Shown: in pieces, positions 1 to 34,418 of the stretch
Layout: every line of letters starts with the position of its first letter
Numbering within the stretch: position 1 is the first letter of the stretch
Virus record (IMG/VR): IMGVR_UViG_3300032373_001203
Coordinates: 1-36,413 of that record
Direction: 5' to 3' (one strand)
Length of the DNA: 36,413 nt
DNA from: a virus
Taxonomy: Duplodnaviria; Caudoviricetes
The notes under the pieces: model-generated
The model's input: the letters and a program-made list of their open reading frames with translations, nothing else
Databases searched by the model: none
What the model was told of the DNA's origin: nothing
Position numbers and translations under genes: made by a program

Positions 1-1239
1 TCACTCCTTGGCACCGAGAAGTGCCTGATATTCTTCCAGCTTGGTAATGGCGGCTTGGGCCATGGGGTACGTTGTGACCGTGTAAGTTTCGATGATGGTA
101 TCGACGCTTTTTTCCGTGTGTCCTGTAATGGCAGCCACTTGACGTTTGGTGCATCCAGCTTCGTACAGGCGGATAACAGCCGTACGGCGCAGGTCGCGTC
201 GCTGCAATCCACGCGCACGTAACCCGCAAGCGTTTGACACGGCATCCCACCGCGACGCGAAATAACGCGCCTTGAAGGGCTGCCCATCGTGGGTACGCAA
301 GAGCGGGCCGTGTGCGATGTTTTGCTCGCGCAGCCTTTTTACCAGTGCGTCTAGGGTGGGCTTAAATTGTGTGTGAACAGGTATCCACACCCGTGCGCCA
401 GTTTTTTGCTGATAGACGTTGATTTTTTCCCCGTCGTAGTCGGCAAGCGTCATGTTCAACATATCGCCTGGGCGCTGCCCGGTGTACGTCAGTAGGGCAT
501 GAGCAAAAGCCATTGCGGGCTCCACCCGCCACTGCGGAATACGCCCCTCTCGCAGTTCCCAAAATCCACGTTGGGCGACCTCCGAGAACAGGGCTTCCTC
601 CTCATATGTCCAATATTGCCGTCTGGATTTAATACCTTCCTTTCTGCCAAACGCAGATACAGCACTACAGGGGTCCCATTTGAGGCCGAAAGTGACAGAG
701 TTTTTGCAGGCCACCTTAATCATGACCTTCACAACCGCAAGAATCTGGTTGGCCTTGTAGGGGGTGTCGATAAAGCTTTCATGCAATGCCGCCACGGCTT
801 CTGTGGTCAGGTCGCAAACCTGAAAATGCCCCCAACGCTTAAGGATGGTGTTGTCGATGTTGTTGCCATAGTCGTAGGCGGTTTTTTCCTTAAGGCGCGC
901 CCACTCACGAGATGGGCGGACATTCCGCGCTTCATTACCACGATAAACCTCTGCCAGATGGACAAAGGTGCCGGGCGGAGGTGGCACGCTCTTATCTTGG
1001 ATGTTTTTTATTTTGAGTTCAGATTCTTGATTGCGGGCATCCACAAAATTTTTAAATTGAGGCGAGAGAGGATCTTTATATGGGATGCGCATGCGCTCAA
1101 GCATGGGCGGCACGGAATAGTACAAAACGCGGTCGACCTTGCGCTTGTTGTGGCGGACAACACGCTTCACGTATTTGTGCTTAATGGTCACTTTCATGGG
1201 CCGACCCCTTTGCGGCATGAACCAACGCCGCTCTGTCAT
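1..1239 (-). CDS. int: Tyrosine recombinase / phage integrase
   Basis: Catalytic-type motifs TGQRPGD (R), QQKTG (K), RDLRRT (HxxR position), ITGHT and a C-terminal Tyr. The start could be 1218 or 1197. Confidence 0.93.
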   Translation of the reverse strand: MTERRWFMPQRGRPMKVTIKHKYVKRVVRHNKRKVDRVLYYSVPPMLERMRIPYKDPLSPQFKNFVDARNQESELKIKNIQDKSVPPPPGTFVHLAEVYRGNEARNVRPSREWARLKEKTAYDYGNNIDNTILKRWGHFQVCDLTTEAVAALHESFIDTPYKANQILAVVKVMIKVACKNSVTFGLKWDPCSAVSAFGRKEGIKSRRQYWTYEEEALFSEVAQRGFWELREGRIPQWRVEPAMAFAHALLTYTGQRPGDMLNMTLADYDGEKINVYQQKTGARVWIPVHTQFKPTLDALVKRLREQNIAHGPLLRTHDGQPFKARYFASRWDAVSNACGLRARGLQRRDLRRTAVIRLYEAGCTKRQVAAITGHTEKSVDTIIETYTVTTYPMAQAAITKLEEYQALLGAKE

Positions 1240-1510
1240 CGCGCTCGCAAAGCGTGGGAGGAACGGAAGGCGCGCACGAAATTAAACCACGCTTGCGCCT
1301 CAGCGCCAAATCGACCTCTTCGCGCGTCCAGCCCTGAAGGTCTTTATCTTTGTCCCTGAGTCCGTGCTCTTTGAGCTTCTCAATACGCCGCCTGAGCGTG
1401 GTCGTGCTGCGCGTCCCGCACCCCAAATATTCCTTGAGGACCGGAAGTGATAGCACGGCTGGCCAGTGACGCTTGGCATCCATGTTCGGGTTCTTTATCT
1501 CCGTGTCCAT
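1181..1510 (-). CDS. Probable excisionase / winged-helix DNA-binding protein
   Basis: Small basic protein overlapping the int 5' end; WPAVLS..LKEYLG...WTREEVDLAL pattern typical of Xis/AlpA-like proteins. Confidence 0.6.
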   Translation of the reverse strand: MDTEIKNPNMDAKRHWPAVLSLPVLKEYLGCGTRSTTTLRRRIEKLKEHGLRDKDKDLQGWTREEVDLALRRKRGLISCAPSVPPTLCERDDRAALVHAAKGSAHESDH

Positions 1511-1540
1511 TGCGAAATGGCGGGCGTTTTGCAATGGGTG

Positions 1541-1840
1541 TTAAGCGCCTGGTTCGTAAGTGTCGGGTTCGGACACCGCTTGCGGGCAAGCATGGGCGAG
1601 GGTTTGTTTGAGCACGAGCCATGTATCCGCGCCCCATTCATTGTCTTCGGGGTTGCAGGTGTGCTCTTCGATGATGCCCAGCGTCCTGAGTTTTTCTTCG
1701 ATGTCGAAGGAATCCGGCGCGTGAGTTTGTTTTATCTCGTCCCAAACCCACAGAGCGAAGTGGACGCATGCGTCCTTGTCGGTTTGGCTCAAGAGCGCGA
1801 TGGTGCTGCCAGCGCGGTTGGCGTTCGGTGTATCCGTCAT
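1541..1840 (-). CDS. Hypothetical phage protein
   Basis: ATG start overlapping the stop of the upstream gene; part of the leftward operon. Confidence 0.7.
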   Translation of the reverse strand: MTDTPNANRAGSTIALLSQTDKDACVHFALWVWDEIKQTHAPDSFDIEEKLRTLGIIEEHTCNPEDNEWGADTWLVLKQTLAHACPQAVSEPDTYEPGA

Positions 1841-2100
1841 GGCGTAAGTTCCTTGTCCGCGGTGTCGCTGGGAAGGGACGAGTGGCGGATGTCCGGCTCG
1901 CCATCGGTATCGACGGTGGCGTATAGGTCCGCGCCTTTCGGCAACGTGATTTGCACCATGGGCGGCGCGCCTTTTTCCGCCACGATAACGCAGCGTTCAA
2001 AGTCAACGGCACGGCCATCGATGGCGACGCCGCCAACGCCCTGTGCTGTAATCGACAGGCTGATACGTGGCGGTTGTGACGGTTTGGAATGGGTATTCAT
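1837..2100 (-). CDS. Hypothetical phage protein
   Basis: 4-nt ATGA overlaps on both sides. Confidence 0.7.
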   Translation of the reverse strand: MNTHSKPSQPPRISLSITAQGVGGVAIDGRAVDFERCVIVAEKGAPPMVQITLPKGADLYATVDTDGEPDIRHSSLPSDTADKELTP

Positions 2101-2408
2101 GGTCCGCTTCCTTCATCTTCATAAATAAAGTGCAGAGGTGGCGACGCGACGCCTGCCCGCAGCTCCCGTTTTGTAGCGTTAGGGAGTGATGCGCCAGGAG
2201 CGCGCGCGGGCGTCGCGATGGGAAACAGGGGCGCGTGAAGCGCGCCGATGCGGGCGGCTTCGGCCGCACAAGCGCAAAACAGCATGTCGATGTCGCCATC
2301 GTTGATGCGCCCGGCGTATTTGGTGCCGAGCGCGACGATGCGCGCCGCCAGAACGTTGCCGTCCATGCAGCGCGACAATGCGTAAAATACAGGGTCTTTC
2401 GTCGCCAC
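2097..2408 (-). CDS. Hypothetical phage protein
   Basis: Fills the gap between the clamp gene and the next ORF; 4-nt overlap at its 3' end. Confidence 0.6.
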   Translation of the reverse strand: MATKDPVFYALSRCMDGNVLAARIVALGTKYAGRINDGDIDMLFCACAAEAARIGALHAPLFPIATPARAPGASLPNATKRELRAGVASPPLHFIYEDEGSGP

Positions 2409-2412
2409 AATC

Positions 2413-3540
2413 TCACCCCGCCATACGCATGATAAATTTGTCCACGTCGGGGCACGTGTCTGCGAGCACCGTTATGGGTTTGTTCGTGTCGGAATCGACA
2501 TAGAGGGTGACGGTGTCGGCGTTGATGCGCTCAAGCCATCCTAAAAATTGCACTTGCTTGATGGAGGCCGCTGGCGGTTTGCCTAACACTTCTGCGGGGA
2601 TGTCGTCCCTATATTCGTCGCCACCTTCGCCCGCGGCGCACAGGAAAATGCCGCTTTCGGTGTGCGATAAGGTGACGATGGGATGCAGCTTGTCCAAAAC
2701 CACACCGGCGCGCTTGAGCGCATCGCGCAAAACCGTTGCGTTCACTCGGTAGCCGGTGTCGGTGTCCGCGCGCGGTAGGCTTTCGTAGGCTGGAAAGCGC
2801 GCATCGATGAGCTTTGAGACCATCGCGCGCGATCCGCACTCCATACGGACGAGACGGTCGCTGGTGAACAGGCGGGCGGCTCCATCCCAACCGTCCAAAA
2901 CGCTGAGCATTGCGGGGATGGAGGCGTCAGGCAACAGCACGCCGGGAAATCCTCCATTGATGTTGGGCAGGGCGACATCGTCCGCGGCACCCAAGGCAAT
3001 ATCGACCAACTGGTAAAAATCCTGCGCGACGATGCGCAGCACGCCGTCGCGGACATGAAAAAACTCACCGGCGGAATGCACCCGCTCGCCGTGCTTGCTT
3101 TTGTACATGTCGCCTTGGGCGAGACGCATGGCGTCGTGCAACGACTTGGCGGACACCTCCCAAGGCTCCACCTCGACCTCGCGAATGAGGGGAAACTCGG
3201 TATCGGGCAGCACTCGCAACTTGAACGAAGAGCGCCCTGCGCGCACGGCGGCGACCGGCGCGCCGCTTGTGTGCTCGACCTCAATCAGCGCGCCTTCGGG
3301 GCTGCCCAAAACCGCGTTTTGCAGTTGGGCATGATTAACGAGTGCGGTTCCGTCTTCACCGTCGTGCATTTCGAGGCTTTGAGTACACCATATGTCCATG
3401 TTGGTGCACGTAACGTCCAAGACGCCTGCGCGGACAACGAGGCACACCTGCTCCAATACCGCCAAAGTGGATTTGGCGCGGGCCTTGCCCACATAGGCCA
3501 GCGCGGACGCCAGCGCAGCGCGTTCTATTACAATTTTCAT
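2413..3540 (-). CDS. dnaN: DNA polymerase III beta sliding clamp homolog
   Basis: 375 aa from MKIVIERAAL; motifs TNMDI, GRSSFKLRVLPDTEFP and SKLIDARFPAY are characteristic of DnaN; ATG overlaps the upstream stop. Confidence 0.9.
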   Translation of the reverse strand: MKIVIERAALASALAYVGKARAKSTLAVLEQVCLVVRAGVLDVTCTNMDIWCTQSLEMHDGEDGTALVNHAQLQNAVLGSPEGALIEVEHTSGAPVAAVRAGRSSFKLRVLPDTEFPLIREVEVEPWEVSAKSLHDAMRLAQGDMYKSKHGERVHSAGEFFHVRDGVLRIVAQDFYQLVDIALGAADDVALPNINGGFPGVLLPDASIPAMLSVLDGWDGAARLFTSDRLVRMECGSRAMVSKLIDARFPAYESLPRADTDTGYRVNATVLRDALKRAGVVLDKLHPIVTLSHTESGIFLCAAGEGGDEYRDDIPAEVLGKPPAASIKQVQFLGWLERINADTVTLYVDSDTNKPITVLADTCPDVDKFIMRMAG

Positions 3541-3995
3541 AAGCCCCTGTCCTTTTGCTTCACCATCTTCGCCACGTATTCGCGCACATCGTGCAACCAG
3601 TTTTGGTTCGCACCGGGCCAGTAGAGTTCGACGCCCCAGTCTTCGTCTTCCGAGGTGTCGCCGCACGTCGAGCCCTGAAACGCCCAAAGGTCGGGGTTCT
3701 CAAACAGGGCGAGCATTTTGTTTCTTGCGCGGGGCGTGAGGTTCGCCAGCTCCTGGGCGGCGGGCATGGGAGGGAGGTTTTCCAGCCACTCGGCCCAATC
3801 GCGGGCCCTTTCTTCGCCATGCTCAAAGATGTCGGGCTTGTCGCGGTTCAATCCCCACAACGGGTCGTGATGTTCGCGCACGCATGCACCCAAGCGCCCA
3901 AACGGCATGTCGGCAAAGGCTTGCAGCTCTTCGGTCGTGTAAGGACCACCCGTGTCGGGGTAGGACAACTCCATCTGAGAGGGGAGACGGCTCAT
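3537..3995 (-). CDS. Hypothetical phage protein (152 aa)
   Basis: Coupled ATGA overlaps on both sides; globular composition. Confidence 0.75.
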   Translation of the reverse strand: MSRLPSQMELSYPDTGGPYTTEELQAFADMPFGRLGACVREHHDPLWGLNRDKPDIFEHGEERARDWAEWLENLPPMPAAQELANLTPRARNKMLALFENPDLWAFQGSTCGDTSEDEDWGVELYWPGANQNWLHDVREYVAKMVKQKDRGL

Positions 3996-5141: not shown

Positions 5142-5492
5142 ATGAAGCTCATCTTTTCGAACATGATTAACCGTCCCCTGTTGCGACTTTGCGCTTGGGC
5201 CACGGCTATGCCCGTTTTGATTTTGGCGGTTGTGATATTTGCGGGGGACGCGGAGGCCGCGGTTCGCTTGCGCGCATGTCATGGCGGCAGCTGCTCAGTA
5301 ACGTGGCTGGGCTGGCTGAGCTTGGCGCTGGGCGGGGTTTGCGTCGCAGGTGGCTTCTTCGACCCCATTACCCGCTTTATCGGGGAAGAGGGTGAACAGC
5401 ACGCGGTGGGCAGTGCGCTCAACAAAACCCGCATATGGTCGTTGGCGGCGGGTGTGATGTTGATGGGCTTCGCGGGTTACGCTTTGCTGTAA
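5142..5492 (+). CDS. Membrane protein (about 3 hydrophobic segments), cargo gene
   Basis: GGAG RBS, ATG start, hydrophobic helices; convergent with the nuclease gene. Confidence 0.7.
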   Translation: MKLIFSNMINRPLLRLCAWATAMPVLILAVVIFAGDAEAAVRLRACHGGSCSVTWLGWLSLALGGVCVAGGFFDPITRFIGEEGEQHAVGSALNKTRIWSLAAGVMLMGFAGYALL

Positions 5493-5514
5493 TTTCTCGT
5501 CTGCGGGGGGGAGG

Positions 5515-6297
5515 CTATAGGCTATTGCTCCATGCCATGAACTGCCCTAAATCCATGACATCGATGCGTTTGCCGTCCGGCGCATGTGCAGCTGCGCGGC
5601 GCAACCATGCGACCGCACCGGGACGCCAGCCGGGGCCGTCAATGACGATAACGACACGCTGTTCTGGAATGGCGGCGGAGGTGGCGGCATTGACGAACAA
5701 ATAGGGCAGCTTTTCGTCGGTCGAGCCTCGCGATTGCTGCCATTTGGCTTCGATACGAATATCGGCGGACAGGCGTGGGGATTTCAGCACGAACTCGGTC
5801 CGTCCCTTGCCCCCGTAAATGGTGGTGTAGGGGGCATCCAGAAGCAACAGGTGCTCTGGGTGTGCTGCGGGGTCTTTGGCCCAGTCGCGATGACGTACGG
5901 GGGAAAACCCCCGCGCGCTCAATGTTGTCTCGATGATGCGTTCCAAGGATTGACCGTGGAGGGCGGCGTTTGCCTTGTTCGGCGGTATGGCGGTGGGAGC
6001 AGGACGAACCTTCGGGGTTACCCCGGCGGCCAGGGCCCCACTCAGTGCGGGACGATTGTCGAAGTCGGATCCGCGTGTGGGTAAATTGGGTGCGGTGGCG
6101 TATCCCGCCCAAAATGCCCCCAGCAATACGCCGACCATGACACTCCATCGCAGTCCGCGATGCGCCAGGATGCGCTTTATCGGATGCGGTTTGAGCGCAT
6201 CGGCAAAGATTTGGCGCACTTCGTCTTCGATGTTTTCGTTGGACGGCCTGGTTTTGGCATCTTGGCCATAATGAGAGGTCCCACCCTTGTGTTGCAT
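5515..6297 (-). CDS. PD-(D/E)XK restriction-endonuclease-like protein with an N-terminal transmembrane helix
   Basis: C-terminal domain GQSLERII...GRTEFVL...IRIEAKWQQSRGSTDEKLPY...VIVIDGPGW; TM WSVMVGVLLGAFWAGYAT followed by a Pro/Ala-rich linker. Confidence 0.8.
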   Translation of the reverse strand: MQHKGGTSHYGQDAKTRPSNENIEDEVRQIFADALKPHPIKRILAHRGLRWSVMVGVLLGAFWAGYATAPNLPTRGSDFDNRPALSGALAAGVTPKVRPAPTAIPPNKANAALHGQSLERIIETTLSARGFSPVRHRDWAKDPAAHPEHLLLLDAPYTTIYGGKGRTEFVLKSPRLSADIRIEAKWQQSRGSTDEKLPYLFVNAATSAAIPEQRVVIVIDGPGWRPGAVAWLRRAAAHAPDGKRIDVMDLGQFMAWSNSL

Positions 6298-6336
6298 GAT
6301 TTGTACCCCTATACAGTCATAGTTGAATACAGGAAC

Positions 6337-7164
6337 ATGCGGACGATTTCAAACATGACAGACCCCTTTTTACGTTGGCCGGGCGGGAAGCGCCGCCTGT
6401 TGGGCGAACTGCGTCAGCATATGCCGGAAACCTACAAGGGTTACTTCGAGCCGTTCATCGGCGGTGGTGCGCTGTTTTTGGCGGAACGCCCGGACTACGG
6501 CTACATAGGCGACGCCAACCCCGAACTCGCCAACGTCTACAATGTGGTCAAGCACAAGCCCACTCAACTCATTGCGGAACTGGCCCTCCACCGCAACACG
6601 GCGAAAGACTATTACAAAGTGCGCCAAGCGGACCGGGACGCGGATTTCACCGGGTGGTCTGACGTGCGCCGTGCGGCGCGGTTCGTGTTTCTCAACCGCA
6701 CATGCTTCAATGGCTTGTGCAGGATGAATGCCAAAGGGCAGCTCAATATGGCTTACGGGCGGCTGAAAAACCCGGACATCACCCAGGCGCGCGCCATCTG
6801 GGCGGCGCACGCGACGTTGCGCCGGGTGCGTATCGCGCATGCGTCTTTCGATGAGGTGTTGAAGTTGGCTCGTCCTGGCGACTTCGTTTATTTTGACCCG
6901 CCCTATGTTCCGTTGAGCCCTACGGCCAACTTTACCGACTACGCCGCCGGCGGCTTCGGCGCGGATAAACACCGCGAGTTGTGGCAGTTGTGCGTCAAAT
7001 TGCACCGCCGCGGCATCAAGTGGATGGTGTCGAATTCTCGCACGCCCCAGGTGCTCGATTTGTGGCGGGCGTTCACCACCCACGAAATCGATGCCCGGCG
7101 CACCATCGCAGCGGGCCCCAAGGGGCGCGGGCGCGTTAAAGAGGTTTTGGTGACGAATTACTGA
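6337..7164 (+). CDS. dam: Dam/DpnM-family (D12 class) DNA adenine methyltransferase
   Basis: PFLRWPGGK, YFEPFIGGGALF, LNRTCFNGLCRMN, FVYFDPPY, MVSNS, KEVLVTNY; alternative start at 6355. Confidence 0.93.
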   Translation: MRTISNMTDPFLRWPGGKRRLLGELRQHMPETYKGYFEPFIGGGALFLAERPDYGYIGDANPELANVYNVVKHKPTQLIAELALHRNTAKDYYKVRQADRDADFTGWSDVRRAARFVFLNRTCFNGLCRMNAKGQLNMAYGRLKNPDITQARAIWAAHATLRRVRIAHASFDEVLKLARPGDFVYFDPPYVPLSPTANFTDYAAGGFGADKHRELWQLCVKLHRRGIKWMVSNSRTPQVLDLWRAFTTHEIDARRTIAAGPKGRGRVKEVLVTNY

Positions 7165-7585
7165 CGGCCATATCCAGCATCATACTGGCCGTGGCTTTGT
7201 CGAAAGGTGTATTGCGCTTGCTGAACTGTTCGTAAAGTACGAGGGCCAAATTGGCGGTGCTCTCAGGCGGCAACACAATGGCGTGCTCATCCATAAAGTG
7301 TAGCGTCGCTGCAATACAATCGCGCATCAAATAGCGCGCATGTTTGACTTTTTCGCCGGTTAGAAGATATTCGCTCGTGGTGCCGAGAAGCTTTGCCGCG
7401 CGGGATATTTCGCGAGTCGGAAGCAGCGAGCGGTTTTCGTACTTGGCGTAAATGCCAATCGGCATACCCAGCTTATCGGCCATGTCTTGTTGCGAAAGCT
7501 TTGCCGCCTTGCGCGCCGTTTGGAGGCGCTCTCTAAACTCGCACCGATATTGTTCGGCTACTTGGGGCGGTTTGTCGGGCATCAT
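7136..7585 (-). CDS. XRE-family HTH repressor (second)
   Basis: RLQTARKAAKLSQQDMADKLGM...YAKYEN...LGTTSEYLLTGE is a classic HTH_3; no S24 peptidase domain. Confidence 0.9.
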   Translation of the reverse strand: MMPDKPPQVAEQYRCEFRERLQTARKAAKLSQQDMADKLGMPIGIYAKYENRSLLPTREISRAAKLLGTTSEYLLTGEKVKHARYLMRDCIAATLHFMDEHAIVLPPESTANLALVLYEQFSKRNTPFDKATASMMLDMAVSNSSPKPL

Positions 7586-7587
7586 CG

Positions 7588-8073
7588 CTACGTATTGTCA
7601 ACCGCAAGCTGGATGTAGTCGGTTACGGTTTGCTCGTCTGCGGTGGTTTCGCCCGCACGGCTGAACCGCTTGTAGAGCAGGGCAACGGCACGGGCCTTTT
7701 TATCGTTGGGCAGGGTTCTGTTGCTGCTTTTCAGCGCGGTGTCCACAGATGACATGATGGATGCCAGCAAGTCACTGTCGATGGGGCCTGCATCCATGAG
7801 GCTGCCCGCACCCGGGGGGATTTCACCCAACAATTCACCGATGGGGCGCTCTATGGCGCGGGCGAGACTTTCCAGCACTGGAACGGATAGAGAATCCGCA
7901 TCACCGTTCAGAAAACCATAGAGCTGATTTGGCGTGCTGAGCCCCGCCTTGCGCGCCCAAGACGCGGCTTGCAGACTGTAATGGGTCATAAACGCGCGTA
8001 GCGCGGCACGGCGCGCATCGGCGCGGGCCTTGGGTACGTGCTCATGGGTGGTTGATGCTGCCGTTTCGCTCAT
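7588..8073 (-). CDS. HTH repressor (CI-like, first)
   Basis: AASWARKAGLSTPNQLYGFLNGDADSLSVPVLESLARA HTH; divergent from the cro-like gene. Confidence 0.85.
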   Translation of the reverse strand: MSETAASTTHEHVPKARADARRAALRAFMTHYSLQAASWARKAGLSTPNQLYGFLNGDADSLSVPVLESLARAIERPIGELLGEIPPGAGSLMDAGPIDSDLLASIMSSVDTALKSSNRTLPNDKKARAVALLYKRFSRAGETTADEQTVTDYIQLAVDNT

Positions 8074-8107
8074 ATCCCCAAGTTGCCCCAAACCTTTTCC
8101 ACACGCG

Positions 8108-8157
8108 ATAACATAAATCTGTTATTTGCCGTATTGACCATCACATTTTAATGTGAT
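8108..8157. promoter_or_regulatory. Right operator pair / PR-PRM switch: ATAACATAAATCTGTTAT and ATCACATTTTAATGTGAT, with TTGACC -35 box
   Basis: Dyads at 8108-8125 and 8140-8157 between the divergent HTH genes; TTGACC at 8134-8139. Confidence 0.85.
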
Positions 8158-8167
8158 GTTTTGAGGC

Positions 8168-8419
8168 ATGGATACAAACGCCACACCGCATAGCGTTGAC
8201 GACGTCATTGCACGCATCCGCGCGTACAAGCTGCACACAGGCCGGCGCAGAAGCGTTCTCGCCTTGGATGCGGGCCTATCCGTTAATGCGCTACGCGACA
8301 TGGACGACCCGGAGTGGAGCCCCACAGCCGACACCTTGCGCCAATTGGAGAAAATCGTTCCCAAAGGCTTCACGGTGGCGGGTGCGGCGGGCCGGAGCGC
8401 GCTTATCGCGACGCCCTAA
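8168..8419 (+). CDS. Cro-like HTH protein
   Basis: SVLALDAGLSVNALRDMDDPEWSPTADTLRQLE; small protein divergent from the repressor. Confidence 0.8.
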   Translation: MDTNATPHSVDDVIARIRAYKLHTGRRRSVLALDAGLSVNALRDMDDPEWSPTADTLRQLEKIVPKGFTVAGAAGRSALIATP

Positions 8420-8495
8420 TCGTGCCCGCTTTGGCGGCCTCGTTCCATTGCGAAAGGAAAGCCCGCGCGCAACGCGTGCGGCTGAGTGAGACGCC

Positions 8496-9032
8496 ATGAC
8501 CAAATGCACGGACCCCAATTCGTTCCCCGGCGCGATAAGCGACATCATCGACCTTGTGGGAAAACCCGAAATGTGCGCCGTTTCGGGGCGCGCGGAGCGC
8601 ACACAAAACCAGTGGGCCGACCCGGAAACCCCCACGGTGCCCAATTTGCGCCAAGCCTTGGCGTTGGATGCGCTGTTCATCCAGCGCGAGCGTGAGCGAC
8701 GCGAGGGGCTCAATCAAGGCGGCGTCATTCGTCCGCCCATTTTGACGGTCTATCAAAACCTGCTCGAAAAGAAATGCGGCACCCTCGTCACGGCGCAAGC
8801 GGATTATGCGTTTCCCGGCACGGTTCTGACCGAAATGCTCGACATATCCGAGGCGGTGGGGTGCTTTTCCGCCGCGCTGCGCGATGCGACAACCCCCACA
8901 AGTCCCGCTGGCGTTGGCCTGTCGGAAATCGAGCGTAAGGAGACGTTACGCGCCTTGAAATCGGTTCGTGACGAGCTGGACGACATGGAAGCGGCCATCC
9001 GTGCCTCAGACAAGGGGGCACCTCATGTTTAA
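8496..9032 (+). CDS. CII-like phage regulatory protein
   Basis: Position after cro; N-terminal HTH-like segment (QWADPET...NLRQALALD) and a helical C-terminus. Confidence 0.55.
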   Translation: MTKCTDPNSFPGAISDIIDLVGKPEMCAVSGRAERTQNQWADPETPTVPNLRQALALDALFIQRERERREGLNQGGVIRPPILTVYQNLLEKKCGTLVTAQADYAFPGTVLTEMLDISEAVGCFSAALRDATTPTSPAGVGLSEIERKETLRALKSVRDELDDMEAAIRASDKGAPHV

Positions 9033-9360
9033 AGCAATTGTGTTTGCCCCCCACATGCCCGCCGGAACGGTGCAGCGCGCGGTGTCCGGGGCGTTTCCCG
9101 TGAAACATGAAGATGATGCCGACGTGTGCATCATCGATGTGTGTGGCGGTGCGCTGAAGGCACCAGCGCTGGCGGCGGCGCGGCGCACGTTGAGGGCGTT
9201 TCGTCGCAAGACCGTTTATCTGTGCGGCGAGGTGAGCCCTGCAACTCTGCCGCAAGATTTGCTGAGCAGCCCCCAAGTGCAAATCGAGCGCGGGCATACC
9301 GTTACGGAATGTCTATGGTTTCACGAATATCGCCTGAAAGGGGGGCTCAAACATGCCTAG
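9025..9360 (+). CDS. Hypothetical phage protein
   Basis: AAGGGGG RBS, ATG at 9025, overlaps both neighbours. Confidence 0.7.
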   Translation: MFKAIVFAPHMPAGTVQRAVSGAFPVKHEDDADVCIIDVCGGALKAPALAAARRTLRAFRRKTVYLCGEVSPATLPQDLLSSPQVQIERGHTVTECLWFHEYRLKGGLKHA

Positions 9361-9661
9361 TTTGAGCCTCAAGGATTCCAACCCCACCCGGCACACACGA
9401 ACGAAGCAGACGCCGCCGCCCTTGAGCAAATGTGCCGTTTCGGTGGTGCGCACGGCGTCCGGCGCGGCGCTTGTGCCATCGCCCCGCCAAGCCCTGGCGG
9501 ACTACACGCCCCACGCCTGCCAATACATCGAAGGCGAAGCCAAATCGCGCCGCGCCAAAGGCGACGCCATTTTTTGCGGCAAGCCGGTTGTGAAAGACGA
9601 GAGCTGGTGCGCCGAGCATCTGGCACGGTGTCGCATCAAAAAACAGGCGGGTGATGAATAA
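9353..9661 (+). CDS. GcrA C-terminal-domain-like protein
   Basis: CQYIEG...FCGKP...SWCAEH matches the C/C/C/H pattern of the GcrA C-terminal domain; the N-terminal HTH is absent. Confidence 0.7.
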   Translation: MPSLSLKDSNPTRHTRTKQTPPPLSKCAVSVVRTASGAALVPSPRQALADYTPHACQYIEGEAKSRRAKGDAIFCGKPVVKDESWCAEHLARCRIKKQAGDE

Positions 9662-11256
9662 TGCTGGTTTACGGTTCCGTCTGCTCCGGTATCGAGGCCG
9701 CCACCCAAGCGTGGAGGTCTTTGGGATGGAAATGCGCGTTCGTGTCGGAAATCGAGCCGTTTCCCCAAGCCGTATTGCGCCATCACATGGGTTGCAACAC
9801 GCTCGCGCGGTCGCGCAAACGCAAGAGCACACCCCGCAAATCCGGCGGCGTGCCGAATTTGGGCGATTTTACGGGCATCCGCCCCCACTGGTTGAGAAGG
9901 ATGGGAATTGACCCAACAACGATTGACGTTCTCGTCGGAGGAACCCCCTGTCAAAGCTTTTCCTGCGCGGGACAGCGAGGCGGATTGGATGATGTCCGTG
10001 GTGAACTCACCATTGAGTTTTTTCGCCTTGCTGACAGAATGCGGACCTTATGGCTGGTCTGGGAAAACGTCCCCGGCGTCCTGTCCATCGACAAAGGCGA
10101 AACTTTCGCGGAAATCCTTGGGCTTCTCACCGCATACCGTCCCGAGGTCCCAAAAAACGGGTGGCGCAATTCCGGCGTGTGCCACGGTCCCGGGCCTTAC
10201 GGCGTCGCATGGCGAGTGCTTGACGCTCAGTACTTCGGCGTGGCCCAGCGCCGCAAGCGTCTGTTTCTTGTCGGATATCTTGGAGACTGGCGACGTGCCA
10301 CCGCGGTACTTTTTGAGCGCGAAAGCCTGTGCAGGCATCCTACGCCGCGCCGAGAAGCGGGGGCGGGAGTTGCCGGAACTCTTGAAGCGCGCGCTTCAAC
10401 AGGTGGCTTTGACCCAGGAGCCCACGGAGCCGCAACCGGATACCTCCAAGCCGTAGGCATCGACGGAACCGGAGAAGTCGGACACGCCTTGACGGCGAGC
10501 CGGACGGCGACTGGACGCATGGACCCGGACGGTCAAACCTTTGTGGCCCGGGTCGCGCCAACAATTAGCAGCCGCGCTTCGTATGACCGCGGCGACGGAA
10601 GTGAGCCAATCGTAGCTCACACCTTGCGCGGCGAAGGCCTCGACGCCAGTGAGGATGGGACGGGACGGGGAACGCCGCTGGTTCCTATCGCCATTCAGGA
10701 GCGCGCAGGGTGCGAAAATCCCAATGCAGGACCGGGCGGCAAGGGCTTTCGTGACGATGGGTTGGCCTACACGTTGGAGGCGCGCCAAGTGCCGCAGGCC
10801 ATCGCCTTCGATTGTAAGGCCAGCGCCTCATTTATGCCCCGGCCCATGGAAGAAATCGCGCCGACCATGCGGGCGATGAACAGCGTGACCGGCAATCAAA
10901 ACGCCGGTGGCCAGTTGGCGGTCGCGGTGTCGCTGCGCGGTCACGACGGCGGTGCCACGGCTGAACTTGGCGGCGAAGTTTGCCCCGCCATGCGCACAGG
11001 TGGAGGGGGCGGCGATAAGCCGCATGTTCTGAGCGATATGGCGGTGCGCCGCCTGATGCCCCGCGAGTGCGAACGTTTGCAAGGGTTCAAAGACAATTAC
11101 ACCGCCATCCCTTGGCGCGGAAAGCCCGCCGACGAATGTCCTGACGGTCTGCGCTACAGGGCCATTGGAAATTCAAAAGCCGTCCCCGTGGTGCGGTGGA
11201 TTGGCGAACGCATAGAACGTGTCAATCGGTTGGCGGGTGATAGGGGGGCACCATGA
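9661..11256 (+). CDS. DNA (cytosine-5) methyltransferase with an expanded variable region
   Basis: Motifs SVCSGIEA (I), GGTPCQSFS (IV), WENVPG (VI), AQRRKR (VIII), RRLMPRECERLQGF (IX), YRAIGNS (X). Confidence 0.95.
   Translation: MLVYGSVCSGIEAATQAWRSLGWKCAFVSEIEPFPQAVLRHHMGCNTLARSRKRKSTPRKSGGVPNLGDFTGIRPHWLRRMGIDPTTIDVLVGGTPCQSFSCAGQRGGLDDVRGELTIEFFRLADRMRTLWLVWENVPGVLSIDKGETFAEILGLLTAYRPEVPKNGWRNSGVCHGPGPYGVAWRVLDAQYFGVAQRRKRLFLVGYLGDWRRATAVLFERESLCRHPTPRREAGAGVAGTLEARASTGGFDPGAHGAATGYLQAVGIDGTGEVGHALTASRTATGRMDPDGQTFVARVAPTISSRASYDRGDGSEPIVAHTLRGEGLDASEDGTGRGTPLVPIAIQERAGCENPNAGPGGKGFRDDGLAYTLEARQVPQAIAFDCKASASFMPRPMEEIAPTMRAMNSVTGNQNAGGQLAVAVSLRGHDGGATAELGGEVCPAMRTGGGGGDKPHVLSDMAVRRLMPRECERLQGFKDNYTAIPWRGKPADECPDGLRYRAIGNSKAVPVVRWIGERIERVNRLAGDRGAP
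9908..10456 (+). CDS. Putative overlapping +1-frame ORF inside the C5 MTase (beta-polypeptide-like)
   Basis: 182 codons open in the +1 frame, TTG start after AAGGA/GGGA; contains GECLTLSTSAWPSAASVCFLSDILETGDVPPRYFLSAKACAGILRRAEKRG. Confidence 0.55.
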   Translation: MTQQRLTFSSEEPPVKAFPARDSEADWMMSVVNSPLSFFALLTECGPYGWSGKTSPASCPSTKAKLSRKSLGFSPHTVPRSQKTGGAIPACATVPGLTASHGECLTLSTSAWPSAASVCFLSDILETGDVPPRYFLSAKACAGILRRAEKRGRELPELLKRALQQVALTQEPTEPQPDTSKP

Positions 11257-12698
11257 CCGTGCGCATCCTCATCGGTGACGTATTTGACCGCTTGGCGGGC
11301 TTGGACGCCGAAAGCGTGCATTGCTGCGTGGTTTCGCCGCCTTACTGGGGCCTGCGCGATTACGGTGTCGAAGGGCAAATCGGGTTGGAGCCGACGATGG
11401 GTGAGCATCTGGACGTGATGGTGCGGGTGATGCGCGAGGTACGCCGGGTTTTGCGTCCCGACGGCACCGTGTGGCTGAACTATGGCGACTGTTACGCAAC
11501 TCAGCCCAATGGCCGCAGCGCGGCGGACACCAACGACCTGAGCCCAGACGACCGCACCTTCCGCGATAAGCCGTTTTCCACTGTCGGCGCGGTGTTGGGC
11601 TCATCTGATGCCGACGCCAAACGCTCGCAAAATGGTTATGAGGCATATAGGCCATCTCACGGTAATCGCGTGGTCGCGGGTGGATACCTTAAGCCCAAAG
11701 ACCTCTGCATGGTGCCCCAGCGCCTCGCCATCGCCCTGCAAGACGACGGTTGGTGGGTGCGTTCTGAAATCATCTGGCACAAACCCAACCCGATGCCCGA
11801 AAGCGTGAGCGACCGTCCCGTTTCTGCCAACGAAAAGGTGTATCTGCTCACCAAATCGGAGAGGTATTTCTACGACGCCGAAGCGGTGCGCGAAAAAACC
11901 GATGAGAAACCGACACTCAATGCCGAGAACCCGGGCGGTCAAAAATACTCGTTCAAACGGGCCAACTCAAAGCGGGCCGAAGCCCACCCCGGCCAGAGTG
12001 AGGGCACCCACCGGGCGGACCGCGAAGACATCGATTATTGCGGCACCCGCCACCCCCGCAACGTCTGGACCATCGCCACACGCCCGTTTCGCGTCGAAAT
12101 GTGCACGATATGTAGGTATGTATACCTAAATGAGCAGCTCGGGCTTATCCGCGTTGAAACCTACAAAGACGACAAGGGCGTCGAGCGCAAACGCAAGTTC
12201 TGTACCTGTGGGGCGCACGATGCGTGGTTAAGCCATTTTGCCACGTTTCCACCCGCGCTGGTCGAACCGTGCATCCGTGCGGGCACGTCGGAGTACGGCG
12301 TGTGTTCCGAGTGCGGTGCACCCTATGAGCGCATCGTCGAAAAAGTCCATGAGGACGGCGGCGCGGTGCAGTCGGGACAAGCGTCGGCGCTGAAATTCGG
12401 GGCCACACCGGAGAAAGGCGGTACGTACAAGCGGCTCATCACCCGCACGGTGGGCTGGCGGGCGACGTGTGCGTGCGGTGAACATACACAGGTTGGCGCA
12501 CCGGTCCCTGCGACCGTTCTGGACCCGTTCGGCGGGGCGGGCACGGTGGGCTTAGTGGCGCGGGCACTGCAACGCCGTGCAGTGCTAATAGAGTTGAACC
12601 CAAACTACGCCGCCATCGCTCGTAAACGCATCCATGAGGCTGAGCCACTGTTCAATCCGGTGTCGGTTTTTTCCTATCGGGGAGAGGCCGCAGAATGA
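11253..12698 (+). CDS. Beta-class N4-C/N6-A DNA methyltransferase with Cys-rich insertions
   Basis: VVSPPY precedes VLDPFGGAGT; IIWHKPNPMPES, HFATFP; CxxC/CxCG pairs. Confidence 0.93.
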   Translation: MTVRILIGDVFDRLAGLDAESVHCCVVSPPYWGLRDYGVEGQIGLEPTMGEHLDVMVRVMREVRRVLRPDGTVWLNYGDCYATQPNGRSAADTNDLSPDDRTFRDKPFSTVGAVLGSSDADAKRSQNGYEAYRPSHGNRVVAGGYLKPKDLCMVPQRLAIALQDDGWWVRSEIIWHKPNPMPESVSDRPVSANEKVYLLTKSERYFYDAEAVREKTDEKPTLNAENPGGQKYSFKRANSKRAEAHPGQSEGTHRADREDIDYCGTRHPRNVWTIATRPFRVEMCTICRYVYLNEQLGLIRVETYKDDKGVERKRKFCTCGAHDAWLSHFATFPPALVEPCIRAGTSEYGVCSECGAPYERIVEKVHEDGGAVQSGQASALKFGATPEKGGTYKRLITRTVGWRATCACGEHTQVGAPVPATVLDPFGGAGTVGLVARALQRRAVLIELNPNYAAIARKRIHEAEPLFNPVSVFSYRGEAAE

Positions 12699-13729
12699 GC
12701 CGTATGCCTGATTACGATTACTGTGCGCTCACATGGGCGACGTTTTACCCGCGTGACTGGTTGACCGACACACGCAACTTACAGGTGGCGGAACGGGGGC
12801 TGTTTATCGACATTCTGTGCGCCATCTACAACGCCGGCGGACCCATCGAACATGACGAGGACTATCTGTGCCGTCTGGGCGGATACAAAAACGTGCGCTC
12901 GCTGCGCCGCGAACTGACGCCGTTACTGGATAAAAAAAAGCTGCACAAGTTGAGCGACGCCGACGGCGGGGACTGGCTGATGAACAACCGCGCCGAAGAG
13001 GAAATCGAAAAGGCCCGCATCCGTCGCGATAAGAACAAAGACAGAACGGAGGCGGCGCATTCATCCACACAAACGGGGGATAAAAAGGGGGATGAAAGTG
13101 TGAAAAAAGCAAAGTCTGGCAAAAAAGGCGTCAAAAAGTCTCGAAAAAGTTCTAAAAAAATGTCGGAACATTCAGACAACACCGTGCAAAATCAAGGCGA
13201 TAATTTAGACATACCACAACCACCGCCAGCCCCACGGACGGACTCTTCCGTCCCGCCCCTACAGGGCGGGGACGGAAAGAGTCCGTCGCCGCCGGTCGCG
13301 GCTGCGCTGCCTGATGGCGCGCCGCTCACGGCGGAGCAGCTCAATATGAGCCGAGCGTGGTTGTGGGCGCGGGTGGTGGCATGTCTGGGCAAAGGCGTGA
13401 ACGGCGAAGCGGATGCCGTCAAGCGAGGCTGGACTGCCGAAGTGCCAGCCATAGATGAGCGCGGCCTGAACGCATGGGTACTTCCGCTGCGCCTACAACG
13501 CATTGAGGCGGGTGTGTGGCACGTCGGCGCGCCCACGCGGCTCATCCGCGACCATGTGCAGAGCGCCTACGCCGCCGCCATCGAGGCGGCCATCAACGCC
13601 GTCATGGTATTTTACAAACCCAGGAATGAGCATGTGGACGGTCAAAATGACGGGCAAAATGATGGGCAGATGGATAGGCAAGGCGGCATGTCCGACACAT
13701 GGGTCCTTGCGTTGCACGTCGGCGTTTAA
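12695..13729 (+). CDS. Phage replication initiator: DUF1376/YdaU-like N-terminus, DnaA domain I-like C-terminus
   Basis: FYPRDWLTDTRNL...ERGLFIDILC...NNRAEEEI at the N-terminus; AWVLPLRL...GAPTRLIRDHVQSAY at the C-terminus. Confidence 0.8.
   Translation: MSRMPDYDYCALTWATFYPRDWLTDTRNLQVAERGLFIDILCAIYNAGGPIEHDEDYLCRLGGYKNVRSLRRELTPLLDKKKLHKLSDADGGDWLMNNRAEEEIEKARIRRDKNKDRTEAAHSSTQTGDKKGDESVKKAKSGKKGVKKSRKSSKKMSEHSDNTVQNQGDNLDIPQPPPAPRTDSSVPPLQGGDGKSPSPPVAAALPDGAPLTAEQLNMSRAWLWARVVACLGKGVNGEADAVKRGWTAEVPAIDERGLNAWVLPLRLQRIEAGVWHVGAPTRLIRDHVQSAYAAAIEAAINAVMVFYKPRNEHVDGQNDGQNDGQMDRQGGMSDTWVLALHVGV
13075..13165. repeat. Phased A-tract region, candidate replication origin inside the initiator gene
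   Basis: GGGGGAT twice, then A5-7 tracts starting at 13121, 13133, 13144 and 13154 (10-12 bp period). Confidence 0.5.
13637..13684 (+). repeat. Degenerate 12-bp tandem repeat x4 (DGQN/DGQN/DGQM/DRQG)
   Basis: gacggtcaaaat gacgggcaaaat gatgggcagatg gataggcaaggc. Confidence 0.75.
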
Positions 13730-13744
13730 GGGGGGAACGGAGCC

Positions 13745-13990
13745 GTGCAAAATCTTTCATGCAAAATCAGCAACGAAAGACGCCCCACCTTGAGCGACGT
13801 GCGCAAAGCGTTTCCTAGGCAGGCGCGCACTGTCGGTGGGGTGGTCGTTACCGCGCGGCCCGTCTTCGATGTCGTCACGCGCGAGCTGAGGGATTGGGGA
13901 TTGGGCTTGGGTCTGGCGTTGTGCATCGAGCGCGGCTTTAACGAACCCGGTGAGGTGTTCGACCGCGCCAAGCGCTTGTTGGGGGCATAG
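13745..13990 (+). CDS. Hypothetical phage protein
   Basis: GGAG RBS and GTG start; fills the operon gap. Confidence 0.6.
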   Translation: MQNLSCKISNERRPTLSDVRKAFPRQARTVGGVVVTARPVFDVVTRELRDWGLGLGLALCIERGFNEPGEVFDRAKRLLGA

Positions 13991-13991
13991 G

Positions 13992-14399
13992 ATGGCTTGG
14001 ACGCGCGAGCGGGTGCGCGACGAACTGGTCGACGCCATGGGCATCATCGTGCGCGCTCCGGACCCGGTGAAGTCGATGCTCAAGGCTCAGCCGCGCCACC
14101 GCATCGTGCGCGACGCGAACGAGAGCTACGGCTACGACGACCCGGCGCGGGGCTTGCCGCCGACCGACAAGGACATCGAATGGGCTGAGGAACGTGTGCG
14201 GTGGACACGCTGGCTGGATGCCCAAACGTGCAAATTTGTACGTTTGCGTGCGTTGCTCAAATCATGGGAATTCATCAAAAAGGCCGACATTCCACGCCAC
14301 CGTTCACGCGGCACCTTGAGCAAAACCGTCAATGCCGGATTGGATGAAATCGCCCGTCGCCTGAACGCCCTGGATGAGCATCGTCGTAAAAATCTTTAA
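13992..14399 (+). CDS. DUF6362-like protein, putative late-transcription regulator
   Basis: MAWTRERVRDELVDA...PPTDKDIEWAEE...WLD...GLDEIARRLN pattern; Q-like position just before the late promoter. Confidence 0.65.
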   Translation: MAWTRERVRDELVDAMGIIVRAPDPVKSMLKAQPRHRIVRDANESYGYDDPARGLPPTDKDIEWAEERVRWTRWLDAQTCKFVRLRALLKSWEFIKKADIPRHRSRGTLSKTVNAGLDEIARRLNALDEHRRKNL

Positions 14400-14414
14400 A
14401 AATAGGAAAAAAAT

Positions 14415-14454
14415 CTTGACACTTTGTGCAAATTATGAGATGTTTTGTGTCAAG
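14415..14454 (+). promoter_or_regulatory. Putative late promoter; CTTGACAC...GTGTCAAG inverted repeat
   Basis: Perfect TTGACA at 14416-14421 in an AT-rich intergenic region; 8-bp inverted repeat at 14415-14422 and 14447-14454. Confidence 0.6.
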
Positions 14455-14547
14455 GTTCGGTTTCGAGCGCCAGGGCGGCCCCTCTCCCCGCCCTTTCCTT
14501 TTCGCAAGGTCGGCTCCCGCACCTTCCGGCCGTTTCGCGGCTTCAAG

Positions 14548-14597
14548 CAAACACTGCCCCATGTCGCCCTCTCGCGCGGCATGGGGTTTGTGTTTGT
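14548..14597 (+). terminator. Hairpin in the late leader (tR'-like)
   Basis: GCCCCATGTCGC / GCGGCATGGGGT stem followed by TTGTGTTTGT. Confidence 0.5.
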
Positions 14598-14659
14598 GGG
14601 TCCTCGGCGGACGGGGGGGCAAACGGCGCGCGTTCATTTCAAGTAGGCGGAATATTGGT

Positions 14660-15028
14660 ATGGCGAAGGGTGAAAAAACGGGCGGGCGGACGACGGGCAC
14701 GCCCAACAAACTGCCTGCTGAATTGCGCCAGCGCATCGTCAATGAGGTGGACCCGGTTAAGTTTTTGGCGGCCTATGTCAATGGTATGCCCATCGCAGGC
14801 GTGGATGCGGTCGGCAACGCGGTGGAAGAGACCGCGCCGTTGGACAAGCGCAAGGACGTGGCGCTCAAGGTTTTGGATAAGCTCGTACCGAGCCCCAAGG
14901 AAAGCGAAAGCACGCTCAACCTCAACGGCTCGCACGAACAGTGGTTGCCTTGGCTGGATAGGGACGAGCCGCCCAAACACTTAGGCGGCGGCGACGGCGG
15001 CGACACGCCAAAAACCAAGATGCACTGA
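14660..15028 (+). CDS. terS: Terminase small subunit
   Basis: KTGGRTTGTPNK N-terminal motif; directly upstream of terL. Confidence 0.75.
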   Translation: MAKGEKTGGRTTGTPNKLPAELRQRIVNEVDPVKFLAAYVNGMPIAGVDAVGNAVEETAPLDKRKDVALKVLDKLVPSPKESESTLNLNGSHEQWLPWLDRDEPPKHLGGGDGGDTPKTKMH

Positions 15029-15042
15029 GCGCGCATCCCATC

Positions 15043-16665: not shown

Positions 16666-16693
16666 CAAACCGAGCATAGCGAAAGGAAACCCC

Positions 16694-16906: not shown

Positions 16907-16925
16907 GGCTTTTGGGAAAAACCGG

Positions 16926-32925: not shown

Positions 32926-33083
32926 CGCCTTGGGAGGCCGCACGCGGGGCGCTGCACATCAACACTCAAGCAATATAATTAATTTCACACGCCCCCCCCT
33001 TTAGCATACGCTTGGGACAATGCATTCAAGGTAATACGTTAAAGACATGTATCAGAAAAAATTTGACTTGTTAGGTAGGGGCA

Positions 33084-33965
33084 ATGACGGAAGGGTTTAG
33101 CGAAGACCGCATCGAAATTCATTTTGATGTGCATCAACCCATCGAATTGACTGAAATGACATTGGCATTTCAGGCCCTCGGTCGTGACTACAAAAAATTT
33201 ATCAACGAGAAAATTCGTGCAGAGGGCGGCAAGACGAATGACGACGATGTGAAGCTGTACATCACAAAGATTGAATCAAACTGTATTTTAGCAGAGCTGG
33301 CGGGAGCCTCACAAATTGTAGGGGCATATTTTACCCTTATGGATTATCAGAGCATTTTCATCGATTATGTTCGCAATTTTGGGAGTGTTGTCGATTATTT
33401 TCGGGGTTTATCTACATCAAAAGATGTGAAGGCTGACGATATTGAGTGCACTAAGGCCGGTGCACAAGCAATCTCAGACGTGATGTCCGTTGTTGCTAAA
33501 AATCATGATGGCAAGTTTGCCATTCGGGCTCGGGCGGGCTCTGAAACCGCCAGCGGACACAAAGTGTATGCAGAGGTTGAGCTAACAAGTGACGAAGCGG
33601 CAGAGACTCAGCGAGGCGCGCTTATTGCTCAAAAGGTCTTGGATTATCGGGGCAAAGCAGATTACGAAAATGTTCTTATGTATTTCCAAAGAACAAGCAC
33701 AGAAGACACTAAGGCTGGCGGTAGGACGGATGACAAGGCCGTAATCACCTCAATCGCTGAAAAGCCTCTTCCTGTGCATTTTGCATCACGCCTTGACCAA
33801 GCCAAAATCAACGACATGAAAAGCGACCCGCACCAAAACCCGTTCAAGTCGGCGTATCGTGTTGACGTGAATGTTGAGGTCGATAGAAAAGGCGTGCCGC
33901 GATTTTATCGTGTATTGCACCTGCATGAAATATTACCAGAAGATGAAAATGATAAGGCTCCGTGA
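33084..33965 (+). CDS. Low-GC cargo protein of unknown function (293 aa)
   Basis: Long clean ORF, AGGTAGGGG RBS, AT-rich upstream region, codon usage unlike the core genes. Confidence 0.85.
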   Translation: MTEGFSEDRIEIHFDVHQPIELTEMTLAFQALGRDYKKFINEKIRAEGGKTNDDDVKLYITKIESNCILAELAGASQIVGAYFTLMDYQSIFIDYVRNFGSVVDYFRGLSTSKDVKADDIECTKAGAQAISDVMSVVAKNHDGKFAIRARAGSETASGHKVYAEVELTSDEAAETQRGALIAQKVLDYRGKADYENVLMYFQRTSTEDTKAGGRTDDKAVITSIAEKPLPVHFASRLDQAKINDMKSDPHQNPFKSAYRVDVNVEVDRKGVPRFYRVLHLHEILPEDENDKAP

Positions 33966-33985
33966 GGTGTGTGAGTGAGGCTCGA

Positions 33986-34207
33986 TTACGCGCCCGTTGC
34001 TGCGATGATGTCAGCATCGGTCGCGGCGCTGTTTGTTGCCTCGGTGTTCTCGAAAGCACGGTCTATTACCTGCTGAACTTCCATAGGTTCAACGGTCGCC
34101 ATGCGGCTGCGGTCGCAATACCGAACTACCGCTTGCCGTAGCAGTTCTATCTCGGCGTCGCGGTCTGCGATGAAGCCGCGATACATTTTTAAATCTTGGT
34201 CATTCAT
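33986..34207 (-). CDS. Hypothetical phage protein
   Basis: GGAGG RBS and ATG. Confidence 0.7.
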   Translation of the reverse strand: MNDQDLKMYRGFIADRDAEIELLRQAVVRYCDRSRMATVEPMEVQQVIDRAFENTEATNSAATDADIIAATGA

Positions 34208-34220
34208 GGTTCAAACCCTC

Positions 34221-34418
34221 CTAATCTTCCATCGCTAAAGACAGGCGAAATTCGTGTACCCAAAGTTCTTTAGCGGTCCCCGCGTCGAACCATTCAACGC
34301 AATATAGGGGTGCGCTATCAGGTTTTATTTGCGCGGTAGTGACAATCGTCACTAGGTCTTTGTCGCCATCAACAAGGACGTGATCCTTAGGCAAAAATTT
34401 GATTTCAACTGTTCGCAT
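34221..34418 (-). CDS. Hypothetical phage protein (small beta-barrel-like)
   Basis: GGAGG RBS and ATG; YCVEWFDAG motif. Confidence 0.7.
   Translation of the reverse strand: MRTVEIKFLPKDHVLVDGDKDLVTIVTTAQIKPDSAPLYCVEWFDAGTAKELWVHEFRLSLAMED

Follow-up and report, generated by a model that had tools for sequence, protein, structure and literature searches.

In phages, the elimination of restriction sites has been attributed to host enzymes and found to be distinctly less frequent when the phage is temperate (Rusinov et al. 2018, PMC6286503), and complete restriction systems are considered nearly absent (PMC10734518). We analysed a viral record of 36,413 nucleotides (Duplodnaviria; Caudoviricetes; IMG/VR record IMGVR_UViG_3300032373_001203), used whole and referred to as the window, with all positions on its scale. 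Its core has lost nearly all GATC sites, and it carries side by side the genes of a Dam-family adenine methyltransferase and of a nuclease of the PDDEXK_11 family (PF20472). As in the cases collected in PMC6286503, one palindromic Type II site of a double-stranded DNA phage is nearly eliminated (observed-to-expected ratio, O/E, below 0.1), but the sole candidate enzyme that we found is borne by the phage itself and by a few host chromosomes.

The cassette resembles the DpnII-type systems (DpnM/DpnB, MboI) in that a D12 methylase closest to DpnM stands beside a nuclease neighbouring the DpnII/Tsp45I/BanI clusters. It differs from them in that the nuclease belongs to PF20472 and not to PF04556, joins a domain of ~150 residues to an N-terminal membrane segment and has a site that is predicted; in addition, the two genes are divergent and have no adjacent DpnA-like second methylase. 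A methylase and a nuclease are likewise paired on a viral genome, with GATC as the core of the site, in Nph3I (temperate phage NrS-3) and Mis1I (a marseillevirus); compared by description, they differ in that the part of the report used here mentions no transmembrane segment for either (PMC10734518). A soluble cytoplasmic Type II enzyme would lack the hydrophobic N-terminus predicted for the window nuclease, whose counterpart in a sister prophage survives beside a broken Dam gene (in an incomplete metagenome-assembled genome, MAG). SNIPE is, like the predicted enzyme, a single-pass inner-membrane nuclease whose location averts autoimmunity and which cuts phage DNA at entry; however, SNIPE is a GIY-YIG enzyme that faces the cytoplasm and tells self from non-self by location, whereas the present nuclease has a PD-(D/E)XK fold, is predicted to face the periplasm and is paired with Dam (PMC13190303). 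In the DpnI/DpnII conflict, a mixture of lineages with and without methylation goes together with avoidance of GATC (Rusinov et al. 2015, PMC4687349), and most hosts considered here have no Dam; that model concerns the chromosomes of species with DpnI-like enzymes, whereas we found no DpnI in the host order and the chromosomes are undepleted.

The depletion itself strongly exemplifies something already known, and Dam together with GATC avoidance is by itself common. What is new is a nuclease subfamily that bears a signal and is paired with Dam, together with its tie to the purge, a tie whose odds we put at about even. No publication was found on PF20472/PDDEXK_11, on periplasmic, secreted or exported restriction enzymes or on a signal-peptide periplasmic prophage nuclease linked to Dam, in a search outside which lay REBASE and most of the subscription literature; with the latter outside the search, none was found either on a prophage having its own system and depleted GATC.

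Loss of GATC from the phage core

Positions 1-34,300 (GC 0.589) contain 8 GATC sites where a maximal-order Markov model predicts 114.5 (O/E 0.07, z -19) and a zero-order model 125. The sites lie at exactly the positions listed in a first-pass annotation of this DNA (1071, 2831, 6068, 17898, 18295, 23221, 24415 and 26015), which put the expected number at about 120. The gap that it noticed between about 6.1 and 17.9 kb is also real: no GATC occurs in the 11.8 kb from 6,068 to 17,898 (P ~7e-18 at the expected rate), and the related words that it called abundant are found 230 (GATG), 112 (GATT) and 80 (GATA) times. CTAG, the second-lowest 4-mer of the core, reaches an O/E of 0.42, and the one-off words GACC, GGTC and GAAC show no depletion. 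Other low words in the window are GANTC (0.31), GGCGCC (0.16), GCCGGC, CCWGG and CTGCAG (0 of 6-8) and likewise AGGCCT. From 34,301 to 36,413, 8 GATC were counted against 10 expected.

The first-pass annotation attributed the deficit to selection, and codon-preserving controls support this. Shuffling synonymous codons within genes (36 genes, 31.4 kb, 300 shuffles) gave 101.7 +/- 8.6 GATC and never fewer than 80. Asp ahead of a codon starting with C was written GAC 99 times and GAT 4 times, and the Ile codon ATC followed a codon ending in G once and a codon ending in C 162 times. The lost sites were mostly replaced by GATG/CATC (+79, z 6.5), a transversion, and less by GATT/AATC (+28, z 2.7), a pattern that fits selection and not cytosine deamination. 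In per-gene counts the deficit extended to the integrase, to replication and methylase genes and to the structural genes. About 93% of the sites have been lost, through synonymous choices, and the loss is confined to the phage lineage. As in phage restriction-site avoidance, one palindrome lies far below the expectation from its subwords, irrespective of codon use and of the signature of relatives.

A metagenome contig (L107) is identical to the window over 6,935-28,593 and the contigs of sequencing run X2 span all bins of both window halves; since both sequencing runs may be the source of the window DNA, this gives no independent support. Run X1 has a gap at ~4.7-9.9 kb (no contig), which we dismissed, as all sampled words of 5,400-7,200 were present (~79% of the run read).

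The depletion was also found in a distant sister prophage, spread over contigs of the Magnetospira MAG G002, whose main structural proteins are 44-61% identical to those of the window. Its structural genes contain 15 GATC of 66 expected (0.23) and the whole prophage 43 of 133 (0.32), and counts are normal directly past the last structural gene (34 versus 35), as in the window. In contrast, 94 kb of its host contain 828 GATC against 786 expected (1.05), and another prophage of the same host contains 108 against 103 (1.05). Chromosomes of the family of Magnetovibrio, to which the host of the window is assigned below, range from 0.90 to 1.01, and prophages elsewhere in these hosts are near 1. Terminase-related viral loci (79 of 80 with enough expected sites) had a median O/E of 0.95, with none below 0.1 and two below 0.35, and 13 distant-portal loci in the host order pooled to 1.02. 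Among the words tested, GATC alone was low in both phages and normal in both host groups. A host trait, which the first-pass annotation had kept in play, is therefore unlikely on the evidence of relatives' chromosomes (the sister's host and the Magnetovibrio family), on which we rejected the host signature as a cause; the depletion belongs to the lineage of the phage.

The methylase and nuclease cassette

The two genes stand side by side as separate methylase and endonuclease genes, as in Type II systems, and the cassette is syntenic and divergent in both depleted phages. A promoter and terminator scan around it gave chance-level counts. The methylase is intact: FEPFIGGG and DPPY are present, the SAM-binding motif is complete and the closest PDB entry is DpnM (1.5e-64). 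Manual mapping on the PDB alignment indicated that, among base-contact positions of EcoDam, N120, L122 and R124 are retained, while K9R, Y119F, P134A and Y138L are changed (residue roles from PMC4417163), and its sequence suggests that the enzyme is likely specific for GATC. Outside the window, in genome G159, a second Dam-family gene (L391, G159:C1:2291032-2294805) was noted in 3.8 kb of GC 0.68 holding only 5 GATC, with unannotated neighbours.

For the nuclease, PF20472 is the sole Pfam match: neither PF04556 (DpnII) nor the SNIPE domains DUF4041 and GIY-YIG were detected, and PADLOC and NCBIfam gave no match. Residues E168, E183 and K185 are invariant in 24 homologues. No solved homologue was found by sequence and Foldseek gave no match to the model at E 0.001 or better; the predicted fold is closest to BstEII (Z 10.4, rmsd 3.5, 130 aligned), and its Atlas neighbours are the DpnII, Tsp45I and BanI clusters. 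Homologues were absent from the GenBank phage set and present on one plasmid. The structure model places a helix at residues 47-67, with a long linker C-terminal to the hydrophobic segment, and the basic residues on the N-side of this putative anchor predict a nuclease domain facing the periplasm. This predicted membrane anchor had been overlooked in the first-pass annotation.

Of the 224 genome loci of the family, the best 80 were inspected; the PF20472 nuclease adjoins a D12 methylase in 67 of these, of which 64 are tandem (2 of them fused) and 3 divergent; seven of the nine loci scanned among the 13 others have another adenine methylase. This linkage suggests that PF20472 nucleases are likely restriction partners. 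Dam and the nuclease were seen fused in one frame in two Chloroflexota genomes (L005 and L006, ~9,170-10,456). The relatives nearest to the window nuclease have signal-peptide-like starts. By a hydropathy cut-off, a hydrophobic N-terminus was found in 30 of 160 family members, and these cluster on a quick tree (4 changes versus 23.7 when shuffled) built from 75 of the 160 rows, namely all 30 hydrophobic members and the first 45 others. The three prophage-linked nucleases form one clade (SH-aLRT 95), nested with Magnetovibrio-type forms (98). Nucleases with signal-peptide-like starts are P0004-P0021 and P0152-P0275. Five Rhodospirillales loci (L001, L070, L149, L152 and L154) hold chromosomal signal-bearing nucleases beside Dam and, at GATC O/E of 0.80-1.07, show no avoidance. 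Divergent order and export are not strictly coupled, since L009 is tandem with a hydrophobic extension, L072 is borderline and L149 is tandem with a signal-like start.

The Dam gene of the sister prophage (L002:4633-5088) is disrupted by a frameshift and by an internal deletion of ~118 codons that includes the catalytic motif, while the adjoining nuclease is intact; no further strong Dam-type gene was found in the incomplete MAG. A third prophage contig (72,282 bases; nuclease P0003, portal P0028) yielded no Dam among the top 120 matches. Both observations fit a nuclease that is kept off the chromosome. Another contig, of 123,358 bases (portal P0029), gave no nuclease match.

The first-pass annotation saw a paradox in a phage that avoids GATC while carrying Dam. 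The paradox is weaker than it was made out to be, as 53 of 79 other Dam-carrying viral loci fall below 0.8 (median 0.62), yet only one of the 79 falls below 0.1. A DUF6996/DUF6997/DUF7226 protein, whole or in part, follows Dam in 20 of 80 viral Dam loci (the downstream gene was scanned in 71), and these domains likely represent a restriction enzyme family. One such locus (L351, an IMG/VR contig of 34,666 bases; 9926-12090) carries an integrase, Dam and an overlapping DUF6996/DUF6997/DUF7226 gene, and has 0 GATC of 76 expected in 20.8 kb.

Candidate agents of selection

We searched the host order for enzymes linked to GATC. DpnII was found in none of 301 genomes and MutH/Sau3AI-like enzymes in none of 201 (positive controls matched in both cases), and DpnI in none of 401, in a search whose positive control gave no match. 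PF20472 was present in 6 of 401 genomes and strong Dam-type matches in 9 of 191. Among the 21 genomes of the host family, a strong Dam-type match occurs in 2, each time adjoining a signal-bearing nuclease, and is lacking in 19. The cassette family is thus the sole GATC-linked nuclease found in the host group, in searches that did not include the DUF6996/6997, cytosine-based and winged-helix Gm6ATC families. Of the three causes offered by the first-pass annotation (the phage's own Dam-linked nuclease, host GATC restriction and a DpnI-like, methyl-directed threat), the Dam-linked nuclease family is best supported, while the searches speak against the other two, less firmly for DpnI.

The explanation that we put first, holding it to be about an even call, is that the purge was selected by a nuclease of the carried cassette family, predicted to cut GATC and to act outside the cytoplasm; GATC specificity, export and the role of the nuclease as selective agent are what we infer. 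If the cassette family lies behind the depletion, the best reading is likely restriction-site avoidance that leaves the phage largely independent of methylation. The PDDEXK_11 nuclease would cut unmethylated GATC, its catalytic domain lying outside the cytoplasm, and selection would come from a nuclease of this family on the phage or on the chromosomes or prophages of related hosts. Anchored in the membrane, the enzyme would attack unmethylated DNA crossing the envelope and so shield the lysogen from competing phages with normal GATC. The host chromosome would be safe by compartment, so that hosts need not avoid GATC, and the phage would be safe through its few sites, so that Dam would be a back-up that can be lost. 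More tentatively, and with considerable doubt, we suggest that a Dam-paired subfamily of the restriction fold is exported and carries out methylation-gated restriction in the periplasm, and that the phage captured one member, turned its signal peptide into an anchor, erased GATC and made Dam dispensable.

Several points weigh against selection by the cassette family. An exported enzyme normally would not meet the replicating DNA of its own phage, so that the pressure would need to arise from related cassettes, carried by hosts and by heteroimmune prophages; with PF20472 in so few genomes of the order, such selection may be weak. Two members of the lineage were measured and both have the cassette, which leaves no contrast within the lineage, and the evidence fits a purge before the cassette as well as the reverse order. 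Alphaproteobacterial chromosomes sit near 1 in any case. The low values among 63 loci of at least 10 kb (L003-L080, mostly signal-less), with a median O/E of 0.68 and 40 at or below 0.78, speak for the cassette family but are confounded by taxa avoiding GATC on other grounds. The 27 viral Dam loci with a restriction-like neighbour have a median of 0.56, with one below 0.1, against 0.72 for the 53 others, and four viral loci that carry both Dam and PDDEXK_11 are at 0.91, 0.94, 0.66 and 0.89. No PF20472 member with a known recognition site was found, the changes K9R, P134A and Y138L could shift the specificity of Dam, and the topology call comes from our own hydropathy and charge heuristic. Finally, the broken Dam of the sister may be an assembly error of the incomplete MAG.

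It is unlikely, in our view, that the pressure instead came from some other GATC restriction enzyme of a present or past host, with no relation to the cassette, and that the cassette was picked up after the purge at no cost. Elimination of Type II sites is well documented, 7.1% of site-genome pairs being below 0.1 (PMC6286503), and the equal depletion of integrase and structural genes points to an old bias. The window is also low in GGCGCC, GCCGGC, CTGCAG, AGGCCT and GANTC; however, GANTC, GGCGCC and GCCGGC are low in Magnetovibrio-family chromosomes too and normal in the sister prophage. The remaining prophages in these hosts have ratios close to 1, and the order yielded neither DpnII nor MutH/Sau3AI-like enzymes, in searches outside which lay DUF6996/6997 and cytosine-based GATC systems.

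A methyl-directed threat would arise if the phage's own Dam made Gm6ATC, to be cut in Dam-negative hosts by nucleases that require methylation, whether DpnI-like or of another kind; having no sites would then be an escape from both kinds of enzyme. Of 42 genomes with IIM enzymes, 38 avoid GATC, for which a conflict between DpnI and DpnII was invoked (PMC4687349), and both the scarcity of strong Dam-type matches in the host family and the frequent depletion of Dam-carrying viral loci agree with it. We nevertheless consider it improbable: dropping Dam would be a cheaper escape than ~100 site changes, and the 16 Dam-carrying viral loci with a GC of at least 0.53 have a median O/E of 1.0 and a minimum of 0.77. 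The absence of DpnI from the order is a weak argument on the same side, given its control and a search that did not include winged-helix Gm6ATC readers on other nucleases.

The nuclease might also work inside the cell or during lysis, degrading for instance unmethylated host DNA in the cytoplasm, the purge then protecting under-methylated new phage DNA from the phage's own enzyme. Selection would then bear directly on the phage. Where giant viruses possess Type II systems of their own, the sites are under-represented in 8 of 17 cases (PMC4687349), SNIPE is an example of a membrane-anchored nuclease that faces the cytoplasm (PMC13190303), and the L351 phage locus couples Dam to a DUF6996/6997/7226 gene with no GATC left. 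Yet the N-termini of the chromosomal relatives are classic signal-peptide-like, the charge bias predicts export and the sister keeps an intact nuclease next to a broken Dam in a GATC-normal host, which makes cytoplasmic action quite improbable. An origin in mutation or composition (through codon usage, deamination of 5mC by the phage C5 methylase, MutH-directed repair or host signature) is hardly credible and largely refuted since, in spite of that methylase and of the slight GATT/AATC surplus, the shuffles, the larger transversion surplus, the absence of MutH from the 201 genomes searched and the near-normal host-group chromosomes led us to reject it.

Gene content, host and significance

The gene set (integrase, sliding clamp, repressors, three methylases, a replication gene, terminase, portal, capsid, podovirus tail and internal proteins; PHROGs and Pfam) is presumably that of a temperate BPP-1/epsilon15-like podovirus, a likeness drawn from gene content. 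No tail-fibre or endolysin gene was recognisable in this annotation. By analogy with the GANTC methyltransferases of sinorhizobial prophages, which share its position (PMC5537653), the N6/N4 methyltransferase is possibly specific for GANTC.

Features of the window and their supporting evidence
Feature	Position	Strand	Evidence and remarks
GATC-depleted core, from integrase to the gene at 33,084-33,965	1..34300		PHROGs/Pfam annotation, GATC counts
Tyrosine integrase	1..1239	-	phrog_1 3e-30, PF00589
DNA polymerase III beta clamp homologue, phage-encoded	2,413-3,687	-	profile matches
PDDEXK_11 (PF20472) restriction-endonuclease-fold nuclease	5515..6297	-	Pfam 5e-37, residues 113-259; N-terminal hydrophobic helix, Pro/Ala-rich linker
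Predicted signal-anchor of the nuclease, residues 51-70	6088..6147	-	Kyte-Doolittle 15-residue maximum 1.79; K+R 4 before, 2 after
Dam-family (D12, DpnM-like) adenine methyltransferase, intact, divergent from nuclease	6337..7164	+	PF02086 4e-55, TIGR00571 above cut-off
C5 cytosine methyltransferase	9661..11256	+	PF00145; 0 GATC versus 5.7 expected
N6/N4 methyltransferase, upstream of replication gene	11253..12698	+	PF01555; 0 GATC versus 6.2 expected
Moron-like gene, AT-rich (GC ~0.46)	33,084-33,965	+	unassigned phrog_9226; 0 GATC versus 4.3 expected
Accessory right end within prophage, likely newly acquired	34301..35830		GATC 7 versus 8 expected; 72% DNA match to a Magnetovibrio-family locus with a GATC site in common
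phrog_3193 protein, which we take to be ASCH-like	34,736-35,281	-	68% identical to the gene beside the C5 methylase in genome G006
tRNA 3' part, candidate att site	35777..35828	+	52/52 bases identical in genome G025

The tRNA fragment is likely the att site: contig ends loose at 35,777 run on into a tRNA 5' half, although neither Rfam nor ARAGORN reports a full tRNA at this position. It appears tRNA-Lys-like from its anticodon loop and differs from the att site of the sister prophage, which ends at a tRNA-Val (L002 10,998-11,072). An att site here makes the GATC-normal stretch of 34.3-35.8 kb an accessory end inside the prophage.

From sequence similarity we infer a host in the GTDB family that contains the Magnetovibrio MAG G001. 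Most of the family's 21 genomes contain a match to a small early gene, at 71-86% DNA identity, pieces of the C5 methylase are 87-89% identical in two of them, and the tetranucleotide correlation of the window is 0.49-0.58 with three family genomes versus 0.31-0.41 with four others. No close relative was found among GenBank phages by megablast or in IMG/VR from terminase, portal and capsid scans, and none of the 21 family genomes has a close portal. Variant letters in run X2 cluster at 6,196-8,164, over the nuclease start and two repressor genes, which suggests a co-occurring variant of the immunity region and hints that heteroimmune relatives coexist.

Restriction enzymes are held to work in the cytoplasm and to kill the cell when their methylase is missing. 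If the cassette is a mere passenger, the window is an unusually strong yet ordinary instance of site avoidance in a temperate phage. If instead the purge was selected by the cassette family, PF20472, for which PADLOC and NCBIfam have no model, would gain a function, and the near-total loss of GATC would supply the predicted substrate of the nuclease. With a subfamily that is Dam-paired and exported, sequence-specific restriction would move to the cell envelope, reopening the screening of entering DNA before it reaches the cytoplasm, with a small and testable enzyme.

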